Origin: a bacterium
GTDB lineage: Bacteria > Patescibacteriota > Patescibacteriia > Magasanikbacterales > GWA2-37-8
Length of the DNA: 64,000 bases
Reading direction: 5' to 3'
Assembly: GCA_043810165.1 (NCBI GenBank)
Contig: JBDROJ010000027.1
Span: forward strand, 36,974 to 100,973
Shown: piece by piece, positions 1 through 64,000 of the stretch
How the letters are laid out: each line of letters opens with the position of its first letter
How positions within the stretch are numbered: position 1 is the first letter of the stretch
Notes under the pieces: generated by a model
What the model saw: only the letters and a program-made list of their open reading frames with translations
What the model was told of the DNA's origin: nothing
Database searches by the model: none
Translations under genes and position numbers: made by a program

Positions 1-72
1 GATCCCATCCACTGTGATGACCAGTCCATCCGATGTTTTCTCCATGCTCACCCTTTTTTCTGTTTTCATGGG

Positions 73-582
73 TCACTCCTTTTCCTCGTCGTCGTTGTTG
101 TTGAAGTCAGTGCCTCTTGGACGAATGCCGGAATGTTCATTTCCAGACACCTGTTTGTGTTCCTTGGAAGGCGGATCTCCGGCCTTGATCGGCTCCATGT
201 CCTGGGTTGTGGGCAAAGGCATGGAATGCCTGGGTAGGTTGCTGTCACCACGGAACACGAAGTTTGCAGACAGTCTGACCAGCCTCATCTCCTCCAGCAG
301 ATAGAGTCCGTCCGGACCGTCCCACACATGCTCGTGCAGATCTGATGTCATGATCTCTTGGTTGATGATCTCGTACTCCTCCTGGCTAATGGAGATACTG
401 TGTCCGGTTCTGACATCATCTCGGATAGCAACCAGGAACAGGCCGGCCGTGAGCGCATAGGCCATCTCCTTGGATCCTACCTTGAAGATATACTCGCCAA
501 CGATCACGAAGGCCTCATACCTATTTTTGTTTTGTAAGAACACCCTTGGCTGGATCGATCCGTCCTCTTTCTTCTCATCCAT
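73..582 (-). CDS. hypothetical protein encoded in the GC-rich 5' islet (169 aa)
   Basis: Long ORF with an upstream AAAGGAAAAGGA SD-like stretch. Local GC is ~50% versus ~34% for the rest of the window. No recognisable catalytic motif. Confidence 0.4.
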   Translation of the reverse strand: MDEKKEDGSIQPRVFLQNKNRYEAFVIVGEYIFKVGSKEMAYALTAGLFLVAIRDDVRTGHSISISQEEYEIINQEIMTSDLHEHVWDGPDGLYLLEEMRLVRLSANFVFRGDSNLPRHSMPLPTTQDMEPIKAGDPPSKEHKQVSGNEHSGIRPRGTDFNNNDDEEKE

Positions 583-865
583 AATCCTTTTCCTTTCACC
601 TTTTTTAGGTGGTTGTCAATGATTTTGCTTATATATAAGCACATTTTTATTGTTTTGTCAAGAGCTAAAACCTCTAAAATACCTTATTTTAGACAAAAAA
701 AACACCCCAATTTGCATTAGAGTGCTTTATTTAAGATCGGCTCCTTCGTTATAAACACCAGTTTGATGTGTATAACGAGAAGTGGAGCCGATCAATACAG
801 CGAAAAAGGACCACGTTCTCTGGAAATTCGCGCGGATTTGCGCTTTGGTAGGTTGGTCGGTTGCG

Positions 866-1240
866 CTAGAGCTGCACTTCTGACTCTGCTCGGTGCTGGT
901 CCATGTAGAAGGACTCCTGCACGAGTTTGTCCGGCTGGATAACCGGAGTGGTCTGGACGGCTCGGGCTTGTGATGCCTTCCTCGGCTCTCTGGCCGTGAT
1001 GATCACGCCCGGGTCGGCGGGAAGACGTCCCGCAGACCAGCATGTCTTGAGATCTGGGAAAATGATCAGGGCATATCTGACCAGGCGATTGGCATCGTCC
1101 TGGTCAAACCTGCCCATAATTGCCTTGTTCTGGGCTTCCATTACCTCGGAGCTTGTACGTACAGCCCCGAAGGCGAAGAAGTCCCTGACACTGTCGGTTC
1201 CTTGCTCTTTCAGAGCAAACTTCAACATACCCTTTGCCAT
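866..1240 (-). CDS. hypothetical protein (124 aa from the internal Met MAKGMLKF...), GC-rich islet
   Basis: The track ORF 866..1321 was trimmed to the Met preceded by an AAAGGAGAG SD. The stop is followed by an extended imperfect hairpin at 728-790. No recognisable family. Confidence 0.4.
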   Translation of the reverse strand: MAKGMLKFALKEQGTDSVRDFFAFGAVRTSSEVMEAQNKAIMGRFDQDDANRLVRYALIIFPDLKTCWSAGRLPADPGVIITAREPRKASQARAVQTTPVIQPDKLVQESFYMDQHRAESEVQL

Positions 1241-1363
1241 TTTCAGGCTCTCCTTTCCTGTGATACAGCTAGTTGAGGTTGGAATTGAAAACAGTATACA
1301 CAAAAAACAGCATACTGTCAATATGCTGTTGTGCGAGAGTGTTATTTTTTTTTTACAAGTTCT

Positions 1364-2050
1364 CTAAATTTTTTTCATATATGCCAACCAAAAATTTCTC
1401 TTATAACTCCGACCTTTAAATCTGGTATAATTGGTCTTTTTCAATAATTTGATAATTTTAAAATACCTTGAATAAAGATCCATAAAATCTTGGCGCGCAA
1501 AAACTCTTTCAATTAAATTCATATCTTTGTTAATATAAGTGCCTGCTTCCGCGCCAGGACTTTTTTTAAGCAATGCCTTGGCATTCTTATCACCATCCTT
1601 GCACAAGCCTTTGAAGAAAAAATAGCCGTTTTTTTTCAATACTCTATGCGTTTCGGATAAGTATATACCGCACTCTTGTTTATTTAAAGAATTAGAAGAA
1701 GTTATATCCAATACCAAATCAAACATTTCATTATCAAATGGATATCCTGATCCAATATTATGAAATTTATAATCAACTTTGACATTCATTTTTTTAGCCA
1801 AAGACTTGGCTAGATTGATTGCTGTATGAGATATTTCAAGACCAATTACCTTATTACCAAGTTCTGCTAAATAATTAGCATTTCTTCCAGTGCCGGATCC
1901 TAAATCCAAGACTGTTAAATTTCCTAGTTCAATGCCTTCTTGTTTTTTTAAAAATTTTAAAAAGCGGAGCACGTCCTTTTGTGGAGCGTCTCCTTTGGCA
2001 ACTAATTGCGGATTTTGATATTCTTTTTCCCAAGCAGTATTCTGTGGCAT
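1364..2050 (-). CDS. class I SAM-dependent methyltransferase
   Basis: Motif I VLDLGSGTGRNANYL (GxGxG SAM-binding loop). Size (228 aa) is typical of small-molecule or RNA methyltransferases. Confidence 0.75.
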   Translation of the reverse strand: MPQNTAWEKEYQNPQLVAKGDAPQKDVLRFLKFLKKQEGIELGNLTVLDLGSGTGRNANYLAELGNKVIGLEISHTAINLAKSLAKKMNVKVDYKFHNIGSGYPFDNEMFDLVLDITSSNSLNKQECGIYLSETHRVLKKNGYFFFKGLCKDGDKNAKALLKKSPGAEAGTYINKDMNLIERVFARQDFMDLYSRYFKIIKLLKKTNYTRFKGRSYKRNFWLAYMKKI

Positions 2051-2150: not shown

Positions 2151-3302
2151 ATGAATCTAATCATCCATCCAGACGAATTATTCCTCAAGGGCGCCAACCA
2201 GAAATTTTTTTACGACCAGTTAGTAGAAAATCTGCTGGACTTATTTAAGGGTATAAAAATTAAGAGAGTAGAGGGCGGATTATGGGTGGAAAACTTTGTT
2301 AAAAATGAACTAAAGCGGTTAGCTTTTATTCCAGGCATAGCTAATTTTTCCCAAGCTTGGAAATGCAAAGATGATATTGATTCCATAACTAAATTATTTG
2401 GCTTATCTCTTCGAGACAAGATTGGCAATAACAAAATTAAAACTTTTCGCATAACAGCCAATCGCAATTATAAAAAATACGCCTTAACTTCTTTGCAAAT
2501 AGCTGAAAAACTAGGAGAGCATGTGAGAAAAGAATTTAATTTAAAAGTAGATTTAAAAAATCATGAGCTTAATATTTTTGTTACAATAAATAAGGAACAA
2601 GCCATTGTTTACGCCAACCCAATCACCGGAATAGGAGGCCTTCCAACCGGCACGTCCGGCAAGGTTTTGTGCCTGGTATCCGGAGGAATTGACAGCCCTG
2701 TATCAGCTTATAAAATGATGGGCAGGGGAGCGCAAGTCGGCATTATTCATTTTTTAAACAAAACCGGGGTAAGCCAAGCCATTAGTGAAAAAATAATAGA
2801 TTTATGCAAAACCCTTTCTCAATACCAGCCACAAGTGCAATTATTTGTTGTGGGTTTTAAAGAAATGCAAAGACAAGTGGTTATGAAAATACCGGGCGAT
2901 CACCGCATGTTAGCTACTCGGCGCCTATTTTTCAAAATATCTGAAAAAATTGCAAAAGAAAACCGATATCAAGCCTTGGCAACAGGCGACAGCCTGGGAC
3001 AAGTAGCCTCGCAAACAATTGAAAACATGAATGTAATTTACCAAGCCACAGACATGTTAAAATTTTCTCCTTTGATAGCTCTGAACAAGAGAGAGATTAT
3101 AAAAATAGCCAAGGATATAGGCACGCTAGAAATATCACAAAGGCCATATGAGGACTGTTGTAGCCTATTTGTGGCCAAACATCCGCAAACTAAAGCTAAA
3201 CTAGACCAGGTATTGAAAATGGAAGCTGAAATGGACTTATCCACACTTGACAATTTGGATATAAAATCATACGATATTAGTATGAATACTGCACTAGCCT
3301 AG
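2151..3302 (+). CDS. thiI: tRNA 4-thiouridine(8) synthase ThiI (THUMP + PP-loop ATPase)
   Basis: PP-loop motif LVSGGIDSPVSAYKMM with an N-terminal THUMP-like region. Length 383 aa. Confidence 0.85.
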   Translation: MNLIIHPDELFLKGANQKFFYDQLVENLLDLFKGIKIKRVEGGLWVENFVKNELKRLAFIPGIANFSQAWKCKDDIDSITKLFGLSLRDKIGNNKIKTFRITANRNYKKYALTSLQIAEKLGEHVRKEFNLKVDLKNHELNIFVTINKEQAIVYANPITGIGGLPTGTSGKVLCLVSGGIDSPVSAYKMMGRGAQVGIIHFLNKTGVSQAISEKIIDLCKTLSQYQPQVQLFVVGFKEMQRQVVMKIPGDHRMLATRRLFFKISEKIAKENRYQALATGDSLGQVASQTIENMNVIYQATDMLKFSPLIALNKREIIKIAKDIGTLEISQRPYEDCCSLFVAKHPQTKAKLDQVLKMEAEMDLSTLDNLDIKSYDISMNTALA

Positions 3303-4410: not shown

Positions 4411-5616
4411 ATGCTTCCAAAACCAAAAGAAAAACAAGAAATATACCTGGATCATGCGGCCACCACATATATGTTGCCAGAAGTAGTAAAAGCCATGGAG
4501 CCTTTTTATATTGAAAAATATGGCAATGCCTCATCTCTATATAGCAAAGGCAGGCAGGCCAATAATATATTATTGGATTGTCGCAAAACAATTGCTGGCT
4601 TAATTCATGCTCAGCCTTTGGATATTATTTTTACCGGAGGAGGCACTGAATCTGACAATTTAGCCATTTATGGAATAGCCAAAGCGCATGAACAGAAAGG
4701 AAAGCATATAATCTCCATGGCCATTGAACACCATGCAGTTTTGCATCCATTGGAAGATTTGGAAAAACAGGGCTGGGAAATAACCTATATTAAAACCAAC
4801 AAACATGGCTTGATAGATCCAAAAGAAGTGGCCAAGGCAATTAGAAAAGATACGATTTTGATAACCATTATGTATGCTAATAATGAAATTGGTACCATCG
4901 AACCAATCGCAGATATTGGCCGGCAAGTATTAAAATATCGCAAAGCAAATAATACCAATTACCCATATTTTCATACTGACGCCTGCCAAGCAGGTGGTTA
5001 TTTGGATGTGGATGTGGAAAAATTACACGTTGATTTAATGACCATAAATGGAAGTAAAATGTATGGTCCAAAGGGCGTTGGCATGCTTTACGTGCGCCGT
5101 GGAGTTAAAATTAAGCCAATTATTTTAGGTGGATCTCAAGAAAGAAAATTGCGAGCCGGCACTGAAAATGTGCCTGGGATCGCGGGTTTTTGCAAAGCAT
5201 TTGAACTGGCACAGAAAAACAAAGATGGAGAAACAAAAAGAATAGGGGAATTGCGCAATTATCTTTGGGATCAAATCAAAAAAAGTATTTCTGATGTTAC
5301 GCTCAATGGTCCGGAATTAATTGACGACCTGCGTTTATCAAATAATCTAAACGTCAGCTTTAAAAATATTGAAGGTGAAGCAATGTTATTATATTTGGAC
5401 GAGTACGGCATAATGTGTTCAACCGGATCGGCTTGCACGTCTGATTCATTAGATCCTTCACATGTTTTAACAGCAATTGGTTTACCGGTAGAATTAGCTC
5501 ATGGAAGCCTACGATTTAGCTTCGGACACTGTAATACTAAAAATCAGGTTGATTATATTATGGAACACTTGCCAATGATAGTAAAAAAATTAAGAGAAAT
5601 TTCCGCAATTCAGTAA
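4411..5616 (+). CDS. iscS: cysteine desulfurase (IscS/NifS, PLP-dependent class V aminotransferase)
   Basis: Conserved PLP-lysine region TINGSKMYGPKGVGMLYVRRG and active-site loop CSTGSACTS. Length 401 aa. Confidence 0.9.
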   Translation: MLPKPKEKQEIYLDHAATTYMLPEVVKAMEPFYIEKYGNASSLYSKGRQANNILLDCRKTIAGLIHAQPLDIIFTGGGTESDNLAIYGIAKAHEQKGKHIISMAIEHHAVLHPLEDLEKQGWEITYIKTNKHGLIDPKEVAKAIRKDTILITIMYANNEIGTIEPIADIGRQVLKYRKANNTNYPYFHTDACQAGGYLDVDVEKLHVDLMTINGSKMYGPKGVGMLYVRRGVKIKPIILGGSQERKLRAGTENVPGIAGFCKAFELAQKNKDGETKRIGELRNYLWDQIKKSISDVTLNGPELIDDLRLSNNLNVSFKNIEGEAMLLYLDEYGIMCSTGSACTSDSLDPSHVLTAIGLPVELAHGSLRFSFGHCNTKNQVDYIMEHLPMIVKKLREISAIQ

Positions 5617-5858
5617 ATTATCGGATTATATTAATTATTACGATCCTTGTGTTTGTCCTCTGATTTGGGACAAGCAGTGTCGCATAAATAACTAATATAA
5701 TCCTATAATAAAATACCCTGAATTTTCAGAGTATTTTACAAAATCATCTTCAGATCTCCTTAATTAACCTGTAATTTAAAGATTAGTTAAGGGGATGGAA
5801 GCTGAAGATGGGCAAAAGAACAATCTGCTTCCGTAGATTAGGCACGACGGAGAATCCG

Positions 5859-6071
5859 TCATACACCCCAGACGCGCGGGTTGGGACAGAGGACCTCGAT
5901 CCTCGTAGAACTGAAGGTTCGCAAAAGACTTAAACATTCATTTGAACCACGTTCTTGAACTGGAGGTTTTCTGAACATGGATCGAATACGGCAAATATTT
6001 GCCACGCCTTGACGACACTTCTCGCAGTTGATCGGGAGTAAATCCCGAGGCGGATCGGCGACTTGTTTCAT
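5859..6071 (-). CDS. small Cys-containing hypothetical ORF in an antisense GC-rich islet (possible gene fragment)
   Basis: 70-aa ORF in a ~50% GC segment. Overlaps the upstream small ORF by 4 nt (ATGA). Contains CEKC...C. No family recognised. Confidence 0.25.
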   Translation of the reverse strand: MKQVADPPRDLLPINCEKCRQGVANICRIRSMFRKPPVQERGSNECLSLLRTFSSTRIEVLCPNPRVWGV

Positions 6072-6235
6072 GAATTTGTCTTCTCCTTTTTCCTCTTGTT
6101 GATCCTCAAGTTCACTGGATGATGTAGATCATAACGCCTGGTGTTTGGCAGGATATAGCGCTTAAAGAACCAGACCAGCGCATTCATCATCGCCTTGGTT
6201 GAATCTACCATGAAATCTGGTAGCCTAGGTATCAT
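6068..6235 (-). CDS. small basic hypothetical ORF in an antisense GC-rich islet
   Basis: The start was placed at the Met with ideal SD spacing (AAGGAGGAATGTCCATG) rather than the track start at 6292, which would abut the iscU start codon. Basic C-terminus NLRINKRKKEK. Confidence 0.3.
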   Translation of the reverse strand: MIPRLPDFMVDSTKAMMNALVWFFKRYILPNTRRYDLHHPVNLRINKRKKEKTNS

Positions 6236-6294
6236 GGACATTCCTCCTTTTTTGACAAACACCATTTTAATATATTTTTCAGACAAAGTCAATT

Positions 6295-6768
6295 ATGACT
6301 AAAAAAACAACTAAAAAACAATCAGGAAATAGTTCAGCTGACTTACGTGATCGCCAAGGCAATAGCTGGCTTTATTCTGATATAGTTAAAGAACATTTTT
6401 TCAATCCGCGAAACTTTATGCATCATGACGAAGAAAAAGAACTTGAATACAATGGCCAGGGCCGAGCCGGATCACCGGCTTGCGGTGATGAAATGATTAT
6501 GTGGATCAAAGTTGATACTAAAACAAATAAAATCAAAGATTGCCGTTGGCGTACTTTTGGATGTGGCAGTGCAATTGCTTCTACTTCAGTTTTAAGTGAA
6601 ATGATTACTGAAAATGATGGTATGCATATAGATCAAGCTATTAAAATTAAACCGCAAGATATCCTAGAACGCCTGGGTGGATTACCTGATATCAAAGTTC
6701 ATTGTTCTGTTTTAGGCGATCAAGCTTTACAAAAAGCAATTAAAAACTATCAAAATAAGCATAAGTAA
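6295..6768 (+). CDS. iscU: Fe-S cluster assembly scaffold IscU/NifU-like
   Basis: Three conserved Cys in the context GSPACGD, FGCGSAIASTS and HCSVLG, plus the LPPVK-like region. Length 157 aa. Confidence 0.85.
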   Translation: MTKKTTKKQSGNSSADLRDRQGNSWLYSDIVKEHFFNPRNFMHHDEEKELEYNGQGRAGSPACGDEMIMWIKVDTKTNKIKDCRWRTFGCGSAIASTSVLSEMITENDGMHIDQAIKIKPQDILERLGGLPDIKVHCSVLGDQALQKAIKNYQNKHK

Positions 6769-6831
6769 ACAAGAAGAGTTATATAATTTATTAAAGCGAC
6801 ACTTTCTGTCATATATCTAAGTGCAGGAACA

Positions 6832-7062
6832 ATGGGCATTATAAATTATATAATTCTTCTGAAACAAAATTTAATTTATATGACAATAACAATTGACCAA
6901 GAAAAGTGTATAGGCTGTGGCACTTGTGAAGCTTTGGCCCCTGAAGTTTTTAAATTAACACATGACGGCAAAATACAAGTGTTAAATCAAGACTCTGAAC
7001 AAGATGATATTGTTCAGATGACAGTTGATTCTTGCCCAACTCAAGCCATTATACTTGAATAA
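6832..7062 (+). CDS. small 4Fe-4S/3Fe-4S ferredoxin
   Basis: CIGCGTCEALAP...DSCP motif. The true start may be the internal Met at ~6880 (MTITIDQEKC), since the first 15 aa are hydrophobic and not ferredoxin-like. Confidence 0.7.
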   Translation: MGIINYIILLKQNLIYMTITIDQEKCIGCGTCEALAPEVFKLTHDGKIQVLNQDSEQDDIVQMTVDSCPTQAIILE

Positions 7063-7079
7063 AAGTAATAGTATTGATA

Positions 7080-7106
7080 AAGCTCGGTTCATCCGAGTTT
7101 TTTGTT
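7080..7106 (+). terminator. rho-independent terminator after the ferredoxin gene
   Basis: Hairpin CTCGGttcatCCGAG followed by TTTTTTG. Confidence 0.6.
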
Positions 7107-7143
7107 TGCATTTTTATAGTATTCTTGTTAAAATGTTTATATT

Positions 7144-7821
7144 ATGAATACAGGAAAGTTGTATATTATAGCCACCCCAATTGGTAATTTGGGAGATATT
7201 GGCTTACGCGCTTTGGAAACTTTAAAACAGGCGGATTTAATTTTGTGCGAAGATACTCGAGTAACCAGGAACTTACTCGATCGTTATCAAATTAAAACTC
7301 CGACTTTGAGCTATCATCAGCATAGCGACAGTAAAAAAATCAAAAAAATACAAAGCCTGCTGAATGAAAATAAAAATCTTGCTTTGGTTACAGATGCTGG
7401 CACGCCAGGCATTAGCGATCCGGGAAATCAATTGGTAGCTACTATTGTGGGCGAACAAAATGATCTAGGCATTCTGGTTATTCCCATCCCCGGGCCGTCA
7501 GCAGTAATCACAGCTTTGTCAGTTTCGGGTTTTCCCACTGACAAATTCTTATTTCTAGGCTTTCCTCCTCACAAAAACAAAAGACAAAAATTTTTTAAAG
7601 AACTGGCAGACAGTAAATATACAGTAGCTTTCTATGAATCAAGCCATAGAATAAAAAAATGCCTGCAAGACTTAAATAAATTTTTAGAACCTGACCAGCA
7701 AATAGTTATCTGCAGAGAATTAACTAAAAAATTTGAAAATATCTACCGGGGAACTATTGGTCAATTAATTGGCTTGGACAATATCCCTGCCAAAGGAGAA
7801 TTTGTTATTATTATAAATTAG
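7144..7821 (+). CDS. rsmI: 16S rRNA (cytidine1402-2'-O)-methyltransferase RsmI
   Basis: N-terminus LYIIATPIGNLGDIGLRALETLKQADLILCEDTR is near-identical in pattern to the RsmI tetrapyrrole-methylase-fold family. Confidence 0.85.
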   Translation: MNTGKLYIIATPIGNLGDIGLRALETLKQADLILCEDTRVTRNLLDRYQIKTPTLSYHQHSDSKKIKKIQSLLNENKNLALVTDAGTPGISDPGNQLVATIVGEQNDLGILVIPIPGPSAVITALSVSGFPTDKFLFLGFPPHKNKRQKFFKELADSKYTVAFYESSHRIKKCLQDLNKFLEPDQQIVICRELTKKFENIYRGTIGQLIGLDNIPAKGEFVIIIN

Positions 7822-7829
7822 ACATATTT

Positions 7830-9359
7830 ATGAAAGAAAAATATTATTTAACCACAGCCATCCCTTATGCTAATGCTGATCCACACATTGGATTTGCCTT
7901 GGAATTACTTTATACAGATGTAATGGCCAGATACCAAAGGCTATTGGGCAAAGATGTGTATTTTCTTACTGGCACAGATGAACATGGACAAAAAATGTAT
8001 AAAACTGCTATAGAAAAGGGCAAGGATGTGTATGAATATGCTTCATTAAAATCAGCTGTGTTTCAAAATCTGGCTGATCGGTGGAATATCACTAATAACG
8101 ATTTTATTCGCACCACCGAGGAACGGCACATGAACAAAGCGCAAAAATTTTGGGATATAGCAAATGCTAATGGCGATATTTATCAAAAAGAGTACACCGG
8201 GCATTATTGCGTTGGCTGTGAGGCTTTTAAAACAGAAAAAGACCTGGTTGATGGCAGATGTGTCAACCATAATAAAGAACCTGAAATAATTTCAGAAAAA
8301 AATTATTTTTTTCGCTTATCAAAATACCAACTGCAGATAGAAAAATTATTCAAGGAAAATCCTGATTTTGTTTTCCCAAAATCAAAATATAACGAAATGT
8401 TGCAGGTTTTAAAAGGCGGGCTGGAAGATGTAAGCATTTCTCGTTCCAAAAAAAAAATGCCTTGGGGAGTGCCATTGCCAGGAGATGACAGCCAGGTGAT
8501 GTATGTTTGGTTTGACGCCTTGACTAATTATATTACAGCTTTGGGCTGGCAATCGGATGATGAAACATTATTTAAAAAATATTGGCCTGCTGACGCGCAT
8601 ATAATCGGCAAAGATGTCAGTCGTTTTCATTCGTTATTATGGCCGGCCATGCTTATGTCTGTTGGCTTGGAACTGCCAAAAAAAATAGCTGTGCATGATT
8701 TTATGACTTTAAACGGCCAAAAAATAAGCAAGAGTTTGGGCAATGTGATCAATCCTTTAGATTTAATAGATCAATACCCGTTGGAAGCACTGCGGTATTT
8801 TTTCATGAGAGAGATACCTTTTGATCATGATGGTGATTTTTCTGATGAAAAATTTCAAGAGCGATATAATGCGGATTTAGCCAATGGCATCGGCAATCTA
8901 TGCAATCGCGTCCTGGTAATGATTGAAAAATATTCTGACGGCACTGTGCCCGGAGTAAATCAAATTTACAATGGCATGATTGAAACTTTAAATCAAGAAA
9001 TTTGGTCAAACTATAATCAGGCCATGGAAAATTTTGCTTTTAATCACGCTTTAGAGACTTGCTGGAAATTTGTGTCCTATTGCGATCAATTAATTTCCGA
9101 TAAACAACCCTGGGTGCTTATCAAGCAAGGCAAAGCTGGAGAGGTTAATGACTTATTACATCATTTGGCGGAAGCTCTGCGCCATATAGGCGTAATGATC
9201 TGGCCGATCATGCCTGAAACAGCTGAAAAAATATTTATCCAGCTTGGGTTAAATGCTAAACAAGAACTAGCCAAACCGCTTGATGAATTAAAAAATTGGG
9301 TACAATTAACTGTTGGTAATAAAATTAATAGGGGAGAGGCATTATTCCCAAGAATTTAA
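7830..9359 (+). CDS. metG: methionyl-tRNA synthetase (short form)
   Basis: HIGH-region variant PYANADPHIGFA and the KMSKS motif KISKSLGN. Cys cluster CVGCEAFK...C for the zinc knuckle. Confidence 0.9.
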   Translation: MKEKYYLTTAIPYANADPHIGFALELLYTDVMARYQRLLGKDVYFLTGTDEHGQKMYKTAIEKGKDVYEYASLKSAVFQNLADRWNITNNDFIRTTEERHMNKAQKFWDIANANGDIYQKEYTGHYCVGCEAFKTEKDLVDGRCVNHNKEPEIISEKNYFFRLSKYQLQIEKLFKENPDFVFPKSKYNEMLQVLKGGLEDVSISRSKKKMPWGVPLPGDDSQVMYVWFDALTNYITALGWQSDDETLFKKYWPADAHIIGKDVSRFHSLLWPAMLMSVGLELPKKIAVHDFMTLNGQKISKSLGNVINPLDLIDQYPLEALRYFFMREIPFDHDGDFSDEKFQERYNADLANGIGNLCNRVLVMIEKYSDGTVPGVNQIYNGMIETLNQEIWSNYNQAMENFAFNHALETCWKFVSYCDQLISDKQPWVLIKQGKAGEVNDLLHHLAEALRHIGVMIWPIMPETAEKIFIQLGLNAKQELAKPLDELKNWVQLTVGNKINRGEALFPRI

Positions 9360-14341: not shown

Positions 14342-15841
14342 ATGTCTAGCATTAATAAAATAGTTGAAGAATTGAAAAAAAATATTTCCTCTTTTGAAAA
14401 GCAAGTGGAAGTTGAAGAGCTCGGCCAAGTTGTTGAAGTAGGGGATGGTATTGCCCGCATGAGCGGTCTAAACAAATGCCAATATAATGAAATTCTGGAG
14501 TTTCCCGGCGAAACTTTCGGTGTGGCTTTGAATTTGGAAGAAGAAACCATCGGAGCTGTGATTTTAGGTGAATTTAAGCATATTAAAGAAGGCGATGCTG
14601 TTAAGCGCACAGGTCGTATTTTATCTGTGCCGGTGGGCGACCAATTTATAGGCAGGGTTATCAATCCTTTAGGACAAACCGTTGACGGCGGTAAAGAAAT
14701 TAAGACCAAAGAATTTTACCCAATTGAAAAAATTGCTCCCGGCGTTATGAGCCGTGAACCTGTAAGTCAACCTGTGCAAACAGGTATTAAGGCCATTGAT
14801 TCCATGATTCCAATCGGGCGTGGCCAGCGCGAATTGATAATCGGAGACCGCCAGACAGGCAAAACAGCCGTGGCTGTTGATACAATTATAAACCAAAAAG
14901 GACAGGACATGATCTGTATTTATGTTGCCGTGGGGCAGAAAGAATCTAAAGTTGCGCGCACCGTGGCCAAATTAAAAGAATTCGGCGCCATGGAATATAC
15001 AGTAGTAGTCAAAGCCAGCGCTTCAGAGCCGGCTCCGTTATTATACATCGCCCCTTATGCCGGCGTGGCCTTGGCTGAATATTTTATGGACAAGGGCAAA
15101 GATGTTTTGATTATTTATGATGATTTAAGCAAACAAGCTTGGGCGTACCGTGAAATGTCATTGTTGTTGCGCCGTCCGCCAGGCCGTGAAGCTTATCCAG
15201 GCGATGTATTTTACCTGCATTCACGCCTATTAGAACGCGCTTGTCGCAGAAACAAAGAACATGGCGGCGGTTCTATTACTGCTTTGCCAATTATTGAAAC
15301 TCAAGCCAGCGACGTGACAGCTTATATTCCAACCAATGTAATTTCAATTACTGATGGACAAATTTTCTTGGAAAGCGATCTATTCTATCGTGGTATTAGA
15401 CCAGCTTTGAACGTTGGCATTTCCGTATCCCGCGTAGGTGGTTCTGCTCAAATTAAAGGCATGAAAAAAGTGGCCGGCAAATTAAAATTAAATATGGCGC
15501 AGTTCAGAGAATTGGAAGCTTTTGCTCAATTTGCCAGCGACCTGGATCCGGAAACAAAAAAGCAAATTGACTTGGGCCAAAGACTAGTGGAAATTCTAAA
15601 ACAACCTCAGTACCAACCTGTGCCGGTAGCCAATCAAGTGGCCGTGATTTATGCGGTATCCAATAGCTTTGCAAGCGAAGTGGAAGTAAAAAATATGCAG
15701 GAATGGGAAATTAAATTTCATAATTATTTCAACAAGTCCAAATCTCTTTTATTGGATAAAATTGGAAGAGGAGAATGGGATGATAAAATAGAAGATGAAC
15801 TCAAAAGCGCTTGCGAAGAATTTGTTAAACAGAGTAAGTAA
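14342..15841 (+). CDS. atpA: F0F1 ATP synthase subunit alpha
   Basis: Walker [10 protein letters not shown] and other alpha-specific regions ([13 protein letters not shown]). Confidence 0.95.
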
Positions 15842-15843
15842 TT

Positions 15844-16797
15844 ATGCCCGTAAATACAAAAGCAATACAAACCAGAATCAAATCGGTCAAAAATACCCGC
15901 AAGATTACCAAAGCAATGGAAATGGTAGCGGCCGCCAAGATGAGAAAAGCCGTGCAAGTGGCTGTGGACACGCGTACCTATGCTACGCTGGCTTGGAATT
16001 TGCTGGTTAATTTGTCCAAAACCCAAGAGGTGAAAATTCCTTTATTGGATGTGCGCCCGGTTAAACGCCTGTTAGTGGTTTTGATCACATCTAATCGCGG
16101 TTTGTGTGGCAGTTTTAATTCTAATATTATCAAAAAAACAGCTGAACAATTGGCCAATCCAGTTAATATCAGCAAACAAAGAATACAAGGCCATGATGTT
16201 GCTCCAAGTCAAGAATTAGAAGTGGATGTGATTGGTGTTGGCAAAAAAGGAGCAAGTTTTGCAAAAAAAATGGGATATAACCTGATATCATCCTTTGGTG
16301 ATATGACTGATACGCCTAAGATGGAAGACGCTCTATTAATCAGCAAAATTTTAATTGAAGAATATACCAATAAAAAATATGATAAAGTAGTAGTTGCTTA
16401 TACTGATTTTCAATCCAGTATTAATCAGGTGGCCAAATTAAGACAGGTTTTACCTGTTTCTGAAGCTGACTTGGAAAAAATGCTCGGTGAGCTTGGATCT
16501 GACAAAGATCGTGGGGAGTCAGAGAATAAAACAGAACTAGATGATTATTTATTCGAACCAAACAAACTAGAAGTTTTAAAAACTATTCTGCCAAGATTGG
16601 TGGAAACGCAAATTTATCAAACATTATTGGAATCAGCCGCTTCTGAACACAGCTCTCGCATGTTGGCAATGAGAAATGCATCTGACGCGGCAGATGATAT
16701 GATTAAAGAATTAAATCTTAATTTTAATAAAGCGCGGCAGGCCGCCATAACTCAGGAAATTTCCGAGATTGTGGGCGGTGCGGCCGCTTTAGAATAA
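15844..16797 (+). CDS. atpG: F0F1 ATP synthase subunit gamma
   Basis: N-terminus IKSVKNTRKITKAMEMVAAAKMRKA and C-terminus NKARQAAITQEISEIVGGAAAL. Confidence 0.9.
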   Translation: MPVNTKAIQTRIKSVKNTRKITKAMEMVAAAKMRKAVQVAVDTRTYATLAWNLLVNLSKTQEVKIPLLDVRPVKRLLVVLITSNRGLCGSFNSNIIKKTAEQLANPVNISKQRIQGHDVAPSQELEVDVIGVGKKGASFAKKMGYNLISSFGDMTDTPKMEDALLISKILIEEYTNKKYDKVVVAYTDFQSSINQVAKLRQVLPVSEADLEKMLGELGSDKDRGESENKTELDDYLFEPNKLEVLKTILPRLVETQIYQTLLESAASEHSSRMLAMRNASDAADDMIKELNLNFNKARQAAITQEISEIVGGAAALE

Positions 16798-19007: not shown

Positions 19008-19083
19008 CAGTCTTGATTGATTGTTTTGTGTTTTTTATACCTTCTTAAAAATAATAAAACAGTCAATCAAGACTGTTTTTTTG
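19008..19083 (+). terminator. rho-independent terminator of the atp operon
   Basis: 13-bp perfect stem CAGTCTTGATTGA / TCAATCAAGACTG followed by TTTTTTTT. Confidence 0.6.
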
Positions 19084-19133
19084 TTCTTTCGCTAACCCAA
19101 CACCATGTGGTGCTGGACAAGGAGGTAGATACA

Positions 19134-19502
19134 ATGGGAACCAACAACGTGCTTATCATAGGTGGAGGAGAAAAGGGGAATGTCATAGCTAGATTGCTGG
19201 CCAGCCAAAATTGGTTGGACAATATTCACCTGGTTGAAGAAACAACTGACTTGGCTTCTAATCTTAGGGCCGAATTAGGACAAACAATCCAAATTCACTC
19301 TAACTGTATAGAAATACCAACCAATATCCGAATAGTTTATGCAATAAGCGAACCAGTGGGCATGGACGCTATTAGACAAAAGATAGCCGAAAAAATTAAC
19401 GGGAAAACATTGATTGTTTGGGTAGCTCAAACTACTAATCTAAAGCTTTTACCACTTTTCCTCAAAAGCCAACTGGCAAATCTCTACGAAAGATCTATCT
19501 AA
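19134..19502 (+). CDS. Rossmann-fold NAD(P)-binding domain protein (TrkA-N/KTN-like), 122 aa
   Basis: The start was moved to the Met preceded by AAGGAGG. GxGxxG motif VLIIGGGEKGNVIARLL. The track ORF start at 19017 lies inside the terminator hairpin. Confidence 0.5.
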   Translation: MGTNNVLIIGGGEKGNVIARLLASQNWLDNIHLVEETTDLASNLRAELGQTIQIHSNCIEIPTNIRIVYAISEPVGMDAIRQKIAEKINGKTLIVWVAQTTNLKLLPLFLKSQLANLYERSI

Positions 19503-34958: not shown

Positions 34959-34994
34959 CTAACAAAGGAGGCTGGAAATGTATAAAGAGCAACC

Positions 34995-35228
34995 ATGGAA
35001 GTAAGCTGTGAAATCCTGAAGTGGGATGAACTGAACACTCAGGATAAGGAACTAATTGCGCAGGCGCTGGAGGTAAGAAAAAAAGCCTATGCCAAATACT
35101 CCTCGTTCATGGTGGGTTGTGTGATTATAGACACAACCGGAACCTCTCATATCGGTCGCAACGTGGAACGAGCATCCTACTCTGAAACCACACTTTGGCA
35201 TCAGTCACTAACAAAACCGGGAGACTGA
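34995..35228 (+). pseudogene. cdd: truncated cytidine deaminase (cdd) remnant in a GC-rich islet
   Basis: ELIAQALEVRKKAYAKYSSFMVGCVIIDTTGTSHIGRNVERASYS matches the Cdd N-terminal half. The zinc-ligand CAER motif region is replaced by divergent sequence, and the ORF stops at 77 aa where ~130 is expected. Local GC is ~48%. Confidence 0.5.
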
Positions 35229-35279
35229 TGTCTCCCGCCTTTTGCCCATAAACTATTATGGGTTAAAGACAGGAAATTT

Positions 35280-43474: not shown

Positions 43475-43492
43475 TATTAAGTTAGTATTATT

Positions 43493-43650
43493 CTGCCGTT
43501 GCGAGGAGTCAGGGTGTTATTGTCATTGCAAGCCTAAGCGACCCGCCTGCCAACGCCTGAAGTCAGAGGGCAATGACGGGCAGGAGCAATCTCATACTTA
43601 CTGTAGCAACGAGACTGCTCCGTCGCTACGCTCCTCGCAATGACGATGCT
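43493..43650. repeat. compound GC-rich palindromic repeat element (family 1, nested inverted repeats)
   Basis: Outer arms CGTTGCGAGGAG / CTCCTCGCAATGACG, with inner arms GTCATTGCAAGCC / GGGCAATGAC. Contains the 63-codon ORF 43452..43643, typical of repeat-derived pseudo-ORFs. Confidence 0.75.
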
Positions 43651-55354: not shown

Positions 55355-55749
55355 GGGGGTGTCGGGCTTCGACAGGAATATTTGTTATCACCGGCATATT
55401 GAGCTGGCTCCATGCTCATAAATCTCTGGGGCGCAAACACAAATGCAAATTTGTACACAAAAGCAAAAACAGCTGTTGCACAAATGTTCAATAGCTACAA
55501 CTTTGCTCCGGCAATGGCTTAATTGCCTATGCCCATCGCGCTGGCCATACCTAGTAACCAGTTGCGGTGCCACTTACCAGGCGTAGGTTAAAAATCGTTC
55601 TGATAGATTTTTAACTGAAAGCAAATATTAGATAGCTATTTAAGTTTTGGTTCTCTTCCTACTTAATTAGCAAATTAAACAAGAGAACTAAATATGTAGA
55701 AGGTATTAACAAAATTATCTGCACGCGGGTTCAACTCCCGCCACCTCCA
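55355..55749 (+). ncRNA. ssrA: tmRNA (ssrA)
   Basis: The 5' end GGGGGUGUCGGGCUUCGACAGG matches the tmRNA 5' consensus (GGGGCUGAUUCUGGAUUCGACGGG). The 3' end GCGGGUUCAACUCCCGCC-ACCUCCA-C forms the T-arm and acceptor stem. The 7-bp acceptor pairing (5' GGGGGUG with 3' CACCUCC) includes one G-U pair, as in E. coli. An internal reading frame ends ...NFAPAMA-UAA. Located immediately downstream of smpB. Confidence 0.75.
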
Positions 55750-55768
55750 CTAAAGGTATAAACATTAT

Positions 55769-63121: not shown

Positions 63122-63244
63122 ATATATTGTATTAAATTAAATATTAAAATATTGCTTAGATCCTTTAATCATTATACACCTCTTAAACAAATAAAAGAAA
63201 TAAAGAAGCCGTATAACCCAAAAATAAATCAGGTTATACGGCAA

Positions 63245-63535
63245 TGTGGGCTTTAATCTGAGTTCGCGATGCGTCGCTGGGCTACTTTTCACCATGTGAT
63301 AAATGCAACTAGGACCGAAGTCCTTGGTTGCAAGTAAAGACTCGCACGGATCTAACGCATTGGCTAGCGCAGACTCTGCCCGGCTCAGCGGACCTAAAGG
63401 CCAGTTGGCCACCACCCCACAGGTGACTTACTGAGTACTGGGCTCCACGTATGGAGCCTAGTCAGGATTGTACCCGAGCCCACGAGTACTTTTCTCTTGA
63501 CTCCAAGAGTCAAAGAGATTCCAGAGGGGTCAATA
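63245..63535 (+). other. GC-rich (~55%) non-coding segment densely packed with hairpins; candidate structured ncRNA or clustered palindromic repeats
   Basis: No ORF of 60 aa or longer on the + strand. The single 92-aa ORF on the - strand has low-complexity composition. Consecutive stems: GGACCGAAGUCC, GGCCAGUUGGCC, GGCUCCACGUAUGGAGCC, the long-range UACUGGGCUC...GAGCCCA pair, and a preceding 11-bp hairpin GCCGTATAACC/GGTTATACGGC at 63209-63243. Confidence 0.45.
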
Positions 63536-63669
63536 TATATAATGGCACTTATTAGCAATATTTGTCAATTATTATAATTATATTTTAATAATTTTATCCT
63601 GAAAAATAAGCCTAGATCTTGACTTTATCATAGTTCTGTGATTAACTTAAGACTCAAAGGAGGAACAGG

Positions 63670-63879
63670 ATGTTTGATAATCAATCACTGAATCAGGCCG
63701 TGATCTTCGGGATCATGGGCGAGCACTTTGTCAGCCGTAAGATAGTGCTGGCAGTCAATCTCTTTGAGCGTGTGATCTTCTGCATACCCAACTGGTTGAG
63801 AGAAGATCTCCGCAGGAGGGAAATTCTCACCAATATGGTGGCTGAAAAAATGAAGAAGCCAATCGAGTTCAAACACTGA
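63670..63879 (+). CDS. small hypothetical ORF with strong SD (AAAGGAGGAACAGGATG)
   Basis: 69-aa ORF in a moderately GC-rich segment. Followed by two hairpins at ~63905-63935 and ~63948-63975. Confidence 0.3.
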   Translation: MFDNQSLNQAVIFGIMGEHFVSRKIVLAVNLFERVIFCIPNWLREDLRRREILTNMVAEKMKKPIEFKH

Positions 63880-64000
63880 GGTCGTGAAAAGCGACTGACC
63901 ATACCTGCCCCGGTAATCATCGGGGCAGGTGTATCTATACTAAATTCTAAAACCCCCCGATATAAATCGAGGGGTTAATATTTTTAATTATTTTTTCTTT

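Follow-up and report, generated by a model that had tools for sequence, protein, structure and literature searches.

GC-rich small-gene units upstream of thiI in a Magasanikbacterales contig: a candidate variable slot of Patescibacteria

Introduction

Patescibacteria are ultra-small, host-dependent bacteria with tiny genomes, in which the majority of the lineage-specific genes still lack an explanation. This study concerns the first 1.3 kb of a 64,000-nucleotide stretch of contig JBDROJ010000027.1 from a member of the Magasanikbacterales (assembly GCA_043810165.1); the whole stretch is called the window here, and the AT-rich remainder of it the backbone. In this segment, GC-rich small open reading frames (ORFs) with predicted expression signals of their own lie on the 5' side of the thiI gene. 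We read the segment, with moderate confidence, as genuine DNA of the Patescibacteria (the candidate phyla radiation, CPR), in which a variable slot 5' of thiI holds autonomous, moron-like units with exchangeable payloads. Such a slot would be a fixed place where related lineages retain a strongly signalled small gene but vary the encoded product.

Phage morons are reportedly autonomous units of promoter, gene and terminator that sit between prophage genes and have a composition unlike their surroundings. Each unit described here likewise has a predicted sigma-70-type promoter, ribosome-binding site (RBS), small ORF and intrinsic terminator; the units differ sharply from their flanks in base composition, and the occupant ORF varies among relatives. 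Unlike morons, they lie in a bacterial chromosome, with a methyltransferase gene and thiI as neighbours and no match to a prophage or phage family, and it is the expression signals and a long hairpin that are conserved between lineages while the ORFs change.

Pneumococcal capsule loci are an example of variable loci in naturally competent bacteria, where recombination in the conserved flanks replaces the locus between them. Here, too, conserved flanks enclose non-homologous content, with thiI on one side and, in the related loci L004 and L039, a penicillin-binding-protein gene on the other (loci of relatives are numbered in this way throughout; in L001 the penicillin-binding-protein flank lies further away). 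In contrast to capsule loci, the cassettes are single small genes, and their exchange is something that we infer from sequence.

Integron cassettes resemble the locus in their small, mostly orphan ORFs and in a bulged, imperfect hairpin of about 60 nt that is conserved while the ORFs vary. Unlike such cassettes, the units come with individual promoters, no comparable hairpin is in view for the second one, and no integron integrase was seen (ORF listing of the 64-kb window revealed no IntI). The ends of the long hairpin, GATCGGCTCC...GGAGCCGATC, also lack the RYYYAAC / GTTRRRY cores, and the hairpin was rejected as an attC site for want of these core motifs.

Islands and islets at recombination hot spots in metagenome-assembled genomes (MAGs) of Patescibacteria measure 2.7-45 kb (Gios et al. 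2025, PMC12455944). The locus shares their anomalous composition, variable content between conserved flanks and mostly hypothetical genes. Unlike them, its visible part measures 0.4-1.3 kb and displays no mobility gene, transfer RNA (tRNA) gene or direct repeats, and its anomaly is a higher GC content that is common to several lineages at one site.

Composition and translation signals of the segment

Bases 1-1300 have a GC content of 0.492 and the remaining window one of 0.360; 1300-bp windows over that remainder average 0.360 (standard deviation 0.028, maximum 0.445). The tetranucleotide L1 distance of the segment to the backbone is 0.58, about 9 standard deviations out, against 0.267±0.033 (maximum 0.398) for the other 1300-bp windows, and bases 1-1300 show the compositional bias (dinucleotide or GC) by which IslandPath-type criteria define genomic islands. 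At 300-bp resolution the GC content inside the segment is uneven: it is 0.50-0.58 across the two coding blocks, drops to 0.36 in the intergenic stretch 583-865, and reaches backbone level between about 1260 and about 1340.

Two complete ORFs, B and C, occupy the coding blocks, and a third, ORF A, which a preliminary description of this DNA had not listed, leaves the window at its edge (Table 1). ORFs A and B are 3 nt apart and look translationally coupled, because the RBS of ORF A sits just before the stop codon of ORF B. ORF C is annotated by NCBI as 120 aa, from an ATG at 1228. GC contents at codon positions 1/2/3 are 0.55/0.34/0.66 in ORF B and 0.59/0.42/0.67 in ORF C, as is usual for coding sequence in a GC-richer genome; the pattern appears in the called frames only. 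The GC content at third codon positions (GC3) is 0.309±0.037 in 53 backbone genes, with a maximum of 0.374, and ORFs B and C lie about 9.7 standard deviations away. Amino-acid usage is shifted as well: relative to the backbone, lysine (5.5 vs 9.4%), isoleucine (5.8 vs 9.1%) and asparagine (3.8 vs 5.2%) are lowered in the segment, and arginine (6.8 vs 4.0%), alanine (7.5 vs 5.7%) and proline (5.1 vs 3.4%) are raised. A structured RNA in place of genes was considered and rejected on the basis of the normal codon-position pattern in the called frames and the outcome of an Rfam search over bases 1-1500, which gave no match at E ≤ 1.

The translation signals also set the segment apart. Shine-Dalgarno (SD) cores precede ORFs A and C, and GAAAGGAAAAGGA precedes ORF B. 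Among the backbone genes, a 5-nt SD core stands before any candidate start in the first 40 codons in at most 3 of 53, and none was seen in tightly coupled genes, the ones with nearly certain starts. The core genes of relatives resemble the backbone in this respect, with an SD core in 1 of 23 genes of L001 and 0 of 21 of L005. The upstream regions are A/T-rich and often end in ...AAT or ...AATT right before the ATG.

As an observation on the backbone itself, its ORF 19017-19502 (GC3 0.38) contains a perfect AAGGAGGT in its interior, with an ATG behind it at 19134, 39 codons in. If that ATG is the true start, this may be one of the very few SD-led native genes.

One rival explanation is that the ORFs are native, vertically inherited, fast-evolving, lineage-specific small-protein genes, whose consensus promoter, strong RBS and GC-rich codons selection would maintain (to allow very high or specially regulated expression, for instance) and which seem unrelated to each other through quick divergence. 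Native genes that are expected to be highly expressed speak against this: csp, atpE, atpA and atpD have GC3 values of 0.32, 0.45, 0.37 and 0.35, and all of them are without an SD sequence. The rise of GC in the segment extends to the first codon position as well as the third, which means that amino-acid usage differs too. Expression-linked codon bias alone was rejected, the csp and atp genes being far from such a bias.

Neither ORF B nor ORF C belongs to a family in Pfam, PHROGs (E ≤ 1), NCBIfam, PADLOC or the PDB sequences. An exhaustive HMMER search of 1.84 billion representative proteins returned only ORF B itself as a relative of ORF B, and when 5.8 billion protein clusters were searched by a word index, ORFs B and C retrieved nothing but their own NCBI entries, which come from a contig of 120,616 bp. 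No ORF B peptides were found in GTDB representative genomes, no peptides of either ORF in JGI metagenomes and IMG/VR, and a profile of the ORF C family matched nothing in the PDB or IMG/VR. Single-sequence AlphaFold models of ORFs B and C were poor, with predicted local distance difference test (pLDDT) scores of 41 and 45.

Predicted expression signals

A promoter, an ORF and a terminator, the parts of a moron-like unit, can all be read from the sequence of the segment (Table 1). The putative promoter of ORF B was read by eye and is unlisted by the consensus scan; a perfect palindrome, GCTTATATATAAGC (627-640), overlaps its -10 box. The palindrome at the other end of the segment looks like the terminator of the methyltransferase gene, because a minus-strand T-run comes after it, and it may also be an operator, because the -35 box of the ORF C promoter lies under it. 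A spacer of 72 nt leads from ORF C to the long hairpin. An extended hairpin had previously been placed at 728-790; the hairpin is real, and its position is corrected here to 735-793. Together with the terminator-like hairpin it folds at -47.2 kcal/mol (z = -9.3 vs shuffles).

Table 1. Features of the window and GC-rich ORFs beside thiI in related loci
Feature	Position	Strand	Remarks
ORF A, first 23 codons (MKTEKRVSMEKTSDGLVITVDGI...)	1-69	-	Runs past the window edge
ORF A RBS, AAGGAG	76-81	-	Directly before ORF B stop codon TGA (73-75)
ORF B, 169 aa	73-582	-	ABIH87_02655, MFH1292073.1
ORF B RBS, GAAAGGAAAAGGA	585-597	-	Two bases 5' of ATG
Putative ORF B promoter	627-661	-	TTGACA (661-656), 17 nt, TGcTTATAT (-10 at 638-633)
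Intrinsic-terminator-like hairpin	691-728	-	Hairpin 699-728, then T-run 691-698
Long interrupted hairpin	735-793	-	10-bp G+C-rich outer stem, 5' bulge, inner stem
ORF C, 124 aa	866-1240	-	ABIH87_02660, MFH1292074.1
ORF C RBS, GGAAAGGAGAG	1248-1258	-	7 nt 5' of ATG at 1240
Putative ORF C promoter	1293-1321	-	TTGACA-17 nt-TATACT; 11/12 consensus positions
Palindrome AACAGCATA-N7-TATGCTGTT, 25 nt	1306-1330	-	Then minus-strand T-run; overlaps ORF C promoter
Transition from GC-rich unit to backbone	1331-1363		T10 run at 1345-1354
Class I S-adenosylmethionine-dependent methyltransferase-like gene	1364-2050	-	First backbone gene; GC 0.32, GC3 0.28, without SD
thiI	2151-3302	+	Conserved anchor; synteny of relatives kept rightward, broken leftward
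nifS-nifU patch	5617-6294	-	Gap of 678 bp; GC-rich core ~5770-6262; GC up to 0.54; ORFs on minus strand
ORF E	5859-6071	-	RBS AAAAGGAGAAG; ATGA overlap with ORF D
ORF D	6068-6235	-	RBS AAAAAGGAGG; ATGA overlap with ORF E
Truncated cytidine deaminase fragment patch	34959-35245	+	Fragment 34995-35213; GC3 0.49; weakest of the three patches
ORF F patch	63640-63935	+	ORF F 63670-63879, 69 aa, ABIH87_03000; RBS AAAGGAGG; GC3 0.63
82-aa ORF beside thiI	L001 (JGI)		GC3 0.55; same ORFs in L002 (Logan) and L003 (ENA)
89-aa ORF beside thiI	L004 (Logan)		GC3 0.62; behind TTGACA-17-TATAAT and GAAAGGAAAGGA
74-aa ORF, similar to that of L004	L039 (Logan)		GC3 0.73; promoter and RBS style as L004
213-aa ORF beside thiI	L009 (ENA)		GC3 0.57; behind TTGACA-17-TTAAAT; also in L010 (Logan)

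Counterparts beside thiI in related genomes

Contigs of relatives were taken from JGI, ENA and Logan assemblies of different runs. In four other lineages a GC-rich ORF lies immediately upstream of thiI and divergent from it (Table 1), and the units of all four have a TTGACA -35 box and an SD-type RBS. The 82-aa ORF of L001 sits inside a patch with a GC content of 0.48-0.54 in a locus that has 0.36 as a whole, and the thiI genes of the unit-bearing relatives have GC3 values of 0.24-0.38 (L039 left out). In L004 and L039 the small unit is followed directly by an ordinary penicillin-binding-protein gene.

Several parts of the segment have counterparts at these loci. ORF C and the 82-aa ORF of L001 (9648-9896, minus strand) are 34% identical over 79 aa with a pairwise E-value of 1e-12; tblastn missed this match, BLASTP confirmed it, and the homologue is present in L001, L002 and L003. 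The long hairpin and its terminator match L004:3044-3144 in a syntenic place (nhmmer E 3.1e-4; the sole match in the six relative loci searched), with a local alignment score of 41 vs 14.5±2.2 for shuffles, and they also match L039:550-622 (E 8.3e-5). The hairpin-terminator has the same fold and the same relative position in the window, L004 and L039, and the 25-pair long hairpin is kept across the three, with two pairs altered on both sides in a compensatory manner. The ORF C homologue of L001 has a terminator like that of the window behind it (cACTCT ... GGGGTGTTTTT), and L004 and L039 possess related versions.

The link to ORF B runs through its signals. Its promoter region (583-698) matches L009:1522-1577, the promoter of the L009 unit (nhmmer E 0.0089). 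The motif GAAAGGAA occurs three times in the window on both strands, one occurrence being the RBS of ORF B, and it is located at the RBS of the unit in L001, L004 and L039; the purine-rich RBS style of ORF B recurs at the thiI-side units of the same three loci. ORFs A and B themselves are absent everywhere. For ORF C, the promoter and the hairpin, the relatives offer a counterpart at this locus; even the nearest of them are only 59-61% identical in ThiI. No similarity was found among the ORF C family, the 74/89-aa family and the 213-aa protein.

These comparisons bear in both directions on the idea of native, fast-evolving genes. Conservation of the locus, its orientation to thiI, RBS style, hairpin and terminator extends across a ThiI identity of 59-61%, the 34% identity of ORF C to its L001 homologue implies fast divergence, and no mobility gene is in view, all as expected of vertically inherited genes. 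The 213-aa, 74/89-aa and C-family ORFs, however, have no similarity at all, and GC-rich patches occur where relatives have nothing, as in the nifS-nifU gap; one such patch is a truncated cytidine deaminase fragment. Taken together with the composition of the highly expressed native genes, we regard this explanation as credible but unlikely.

With the relatives in hand, the preliminary description can be revised. The higher GC content that it reported at 1-1320, and that it proposed to check by sliding GC and tetranucleotide statistics, is confirmed by both, and the computed percentages agree with its account of Arg/Ala/Pro-rich rather than Lys/Ile/Asn-rich usage. Its two minus-strand ORFs with SD sequences are ORFs B and C, and their lack of a recognisable function still holds after the searches of Pfam, PHROGs, NCBIfam, PADLOC and the PDB. 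It called both orphan genes, which fits ORF B, with no relative among 1.84 billion representative proteins, but does not strictly fit ORF C, with its homologue in L001. It also proposed recently acquired foreign DNA: composition and translation signals are indeed unlike those of the backbone, but "recently acquired" is doubtful, because the GC-rich, SD-led character of the locus is common to lineages whose ThiI proteins are only 59-61% identical.

A proposed slot with exchangeable payloads

Based on these comparisons, the slot would hold at least two autonomous transcription units on the minus strand. The first would run from a promoter with a palindrome over its -35 box through an RBS and ORF C to the conserved long hairpin and the terminator, and the second from a promoter with a palindrome over its -10 box through an RBS and ORF B to the coupled ORF A, which leaves the window. 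The expression parts (sigma-70-type promoter, purine-rich GAAAGGA-type RBS, hairpin and terminator) are common, piece by piece, to the units of related genomes, and the payload ORFs are GC-rich and mostly unrelated to each other. Each unit would probably drive the expression of its small protein strongly and in isolation from its neighbours, in a genome whose native genes are without SD sequences, and the long hairpin and terminator would block read-through into the next gene. The activity of the promoters and terminators and any role of the hairpin are predictions from sequence, as is horizontal exchange.

The payloads may be accessory genes from a GC-richer gene pool that are exchanged or replaced at the slot. 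Replacement would most plausibly proceed via recombination in the conserved flanks or signals, because natural competence has been shown in Saccharibacteria, another lineage of Patescibacteria (PMC10633639); genomic islands, prophages and horizontal transfer are also reported to be common in Patescibacteria MAGs (PMC12455944). We favour payload exchange because the payloads are non-homologous and carry a bias beyond that of any native gene, because first-position GC content and amino-acid usage are shifted along with the third position, and because DNA of this kind also occupies sites where relatives carry no insert.

A number of observations weigh against this reading. The slot is seen in five lineages only, and L005, L006 and L008 are without a clear one. 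The long hairpin is lacking in L001 and L009, and its covariation is based on three sequences. ORFs A and B have no homologue, and the link of ORF B to the clade depends on a short RBS motif and a promoter match of modest significance (E 0.0089). The promoters and terminators are consensus matches only, and the consensus scan gave 8 promoter-like sites vs 4.7±2.1 in shuffles. A methyltransferase gene lies between the units and thiI here and not in the relatives, whose gene tables hold no counterpart at the same position. No recombinase, repeats or other exchange machinery are in view, and no donor was identified. Finally, the GC-richness spans lineages at 59-61% ThiI identity, a pattern that native genes maintained by selection would fit about equally well.

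A bolder version would be an undescribed cassette system of Patescibacteria, with a conserved frame for expression and recombination (promoter, GAAAGGA-type RBS, long bulged hairpin and terminator) into which unrelated GC-rich payloads are swapped. In it the hairpin would serve as a recombination site, much like attC, the payloads would be drawn from a pool of higher GC content (the host bacterium, for example, or an unknown element), and the other GC-rich patches of the window, including the deaminase fragment, would be older or abortive insertions. We consider such a system decidedly improbable.

The meaning of the slot depends on where its payloads come from. If they are imported, the slot would record a source of DNA, possibly the hosts, and a route of expression in an SD-poor genome; if they are native, they would form a distinct expression class.

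Synteny around thiI

The best ThiI matches are 55-61% identical, and the named ones come from Magasanikbacteria, Parcubacteria or Patescibacteria; a peptide scan of GTDB genomes with ThiI found no close relative. To the right of thiI the order of an RNase H-like gene and the genes for Rrf2, NifS, NifU, ferredoxin, methylase, MetRS, CvpA, TatD and the ATP synthase is kept, and this rightward order is conserved in L001, L005, L006 and L008. To the left, gene order differs in every lineage. Because order is kept on the right of thiI and variable on the left, we assign the AT-rich part to the core chromosome and place the segment at a break in synteny. The converse, that the AT-rich part is the island, had been offered as an alternative in the preliminary description and is ruled out by synteny with Patescibacteria from thiI rightward through the Fe-S cluster genes, metG and the ATP synthase genes.

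On the variable side, the contig of L008 (1-384; JGI Ga0376277_0055132) extends just 384 nt upstream of thiI. This may be a side of the gene where assemblies are prone to break, as would fit a variable locus.

Mobile elements and assembly chimeras

The segment could instead be the edge of a larger mobile element (a prophage, integrative element or island) that continues upstream, with ORFs B and A as its outermost genes. GC-rich DNA is still running at window position 1, ORF B is a complete orphan like many genes of mobile elements, and the palindromes over both promoters are possible operators; islands and prophages are, moreover, common in Patescibacteria MAGs (PMC12455944). Searches for such an element gave no positive evidence. 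With megablast, blastn and tblastn, 50,697 phage records yielded no match or matches at chance level (E about 1) and 72,556 plasmid records yielded chance-level matches only, IMG/VR gave no significant similarity, and IMG/VR scans that included the hairpin patterns returned nothing, the 28 matches to the terminator pattern being about the chance estimate for 17 specified bases. ORFs B and C lie outside every family of Pfam, NCBIfam, PHROGs and PADLOC, and no mobility gene was found among them. There is no tRNA gene in the window, the sole transfer-messenger RNA (tmRNA) gene lies at 55355-55752 and none at the junction, and no convincing repeat was seen at the visible boundary. The region 690-1330 corresponds, furthermore, to a small unit, which in L004 and L039 is followed by a penicillin-binding-protein gene and not by an element. 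The earlier suggestion of a prophage or integrative-element edge, for which a homology search of the two proteins against phage and plasmid sets had been proposed, finds no support in these chance-level matches or in the surroundings, which have no tRNA gene or recombinase in view, and we consider it improbable.

An assembly chimera is the other explanation offered early on, in which a GC-richer organism would be the source of 1-1330 in whole or in part, the most credible portion being 1 to about 620. The extreme shift in composition and SD use would be explained by it, as would the extension of the segment to the window edge, and ORFs B and A have no relative that ties them to Patescibacteria. 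Against it, ORF C, the hairpin-terminator and the ORF B promoter have counterparts beside thiI in independently assembled Patescibacteria, and the contig contains similar patches in its interior, between stretches of backbone. The composition changes in a 43-nt intergenic space that leaves the methyltransferase stop codon and the whole ORF C promoter intact, which would be rare for a random join. Because related organisms carry the same elements at the same locus in independent assemblies, we regard a chimera as very unlikely overall; for 620-1330 it is unlikely, and 1-620 is probably not chimeric either. A sharp compositional break at the edge of a MAG contig or window is usually read as contamination; the relatives argue that this one is real, and filters based on GC content or SD sequences would wrongly discard such DNA.

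Other GC-rich patches in the window

The interior of the window holds at least two further small, GC-rich, SD-led patches and one weaker case, all with backbone on both sides (Table 1). They were considered as copies of one element and this was rejected, no sequence being common to the patches or to the first segment.

The first patch lies between nifS (4411-5616) and nifU (6295-6768), whose distance in relatives is 52 nt (L001) and 6 nt (L005); the N-terminus of NifU is intact here. The NCBI protein set omits its ORFs D and E, for which no family match was found. Among ORFs D, E and F, the sole Pfam match at E ≤ 1 is that of ORF E to DUF5651 (E 0.014, below the cut-off), and PHROGs gave none at E ≤ 0.1. 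For the coupled pairs B-A and D-E, no toxin or antitoxin family was found in Pfam, NCBIfam or PADLOC.

ORF F, near the right end of the window, has a promoter-like TTGACT upstream and a G+C-rich terminator hairpin at 63903-63930. It is a singleton in its 90%-identity cluster and has no family, phage or plasmid match.

The third patch holds the N-terminal ~50 residues of a cytidine deaminase of the tetrameric type (TIGR01354 positions 2-49 of 126, E 9e-13), with Bacillus cytidine deaminases as best PDB matches. The neighbours of the fragment are lysS and a cytidylyltransferase-like gene, and a terminator hairpin comes after it at 35213-35242; the fragment looks like a stranded piece of a foreign gene. 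It is the weakest case because the GGAGG upstream is spaced for an 8-codon ORF and not for the ATG of the fragment.

Further observations

Two other GC-rich stretches of the window are of a different kind. The one at 63220-63530 (some 310 nt, with GC peaking at 0.545 in 200-bp windows) contains no convincing ORF and has no Rfam match at E ≤ 1; this may be a structured RNA gene that is outside Rfam or too divergent for it. At 43490-43650, a GC-rich intergenic element (up to 0.57) between convergent genes carries repeated ...CATTGC... / ...GCAATGAC... motifs. It may resemble the palindromic repeat elements that give spurious '...ARNDG'-type ORFs in many environmental genomes.

The NifU protein of the window (6295-6768) has 157 aa and is without the ~68-residue C-terminal domain of its 225-aa relatives; compared with L001:13586-14263 and L005:11656-12333, its N-terminal IscU-like part is 66-67% identical. 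L005 also has, between metG and cvpA (15660-16028), a gene that the window lacks; it belongs to the bAvd / 23S-rRNA-IVP family, which is found alongside diversity-generating retroelements. In L001, a copper-resistance cluster at 4573-8840, with a CsoR-like repressor, an HMA/cupredoxin protein and a P-type ATPase, lies between the penicillin-binding-protein gene and the thiI-side units and is further variable cargo at the synteny break.

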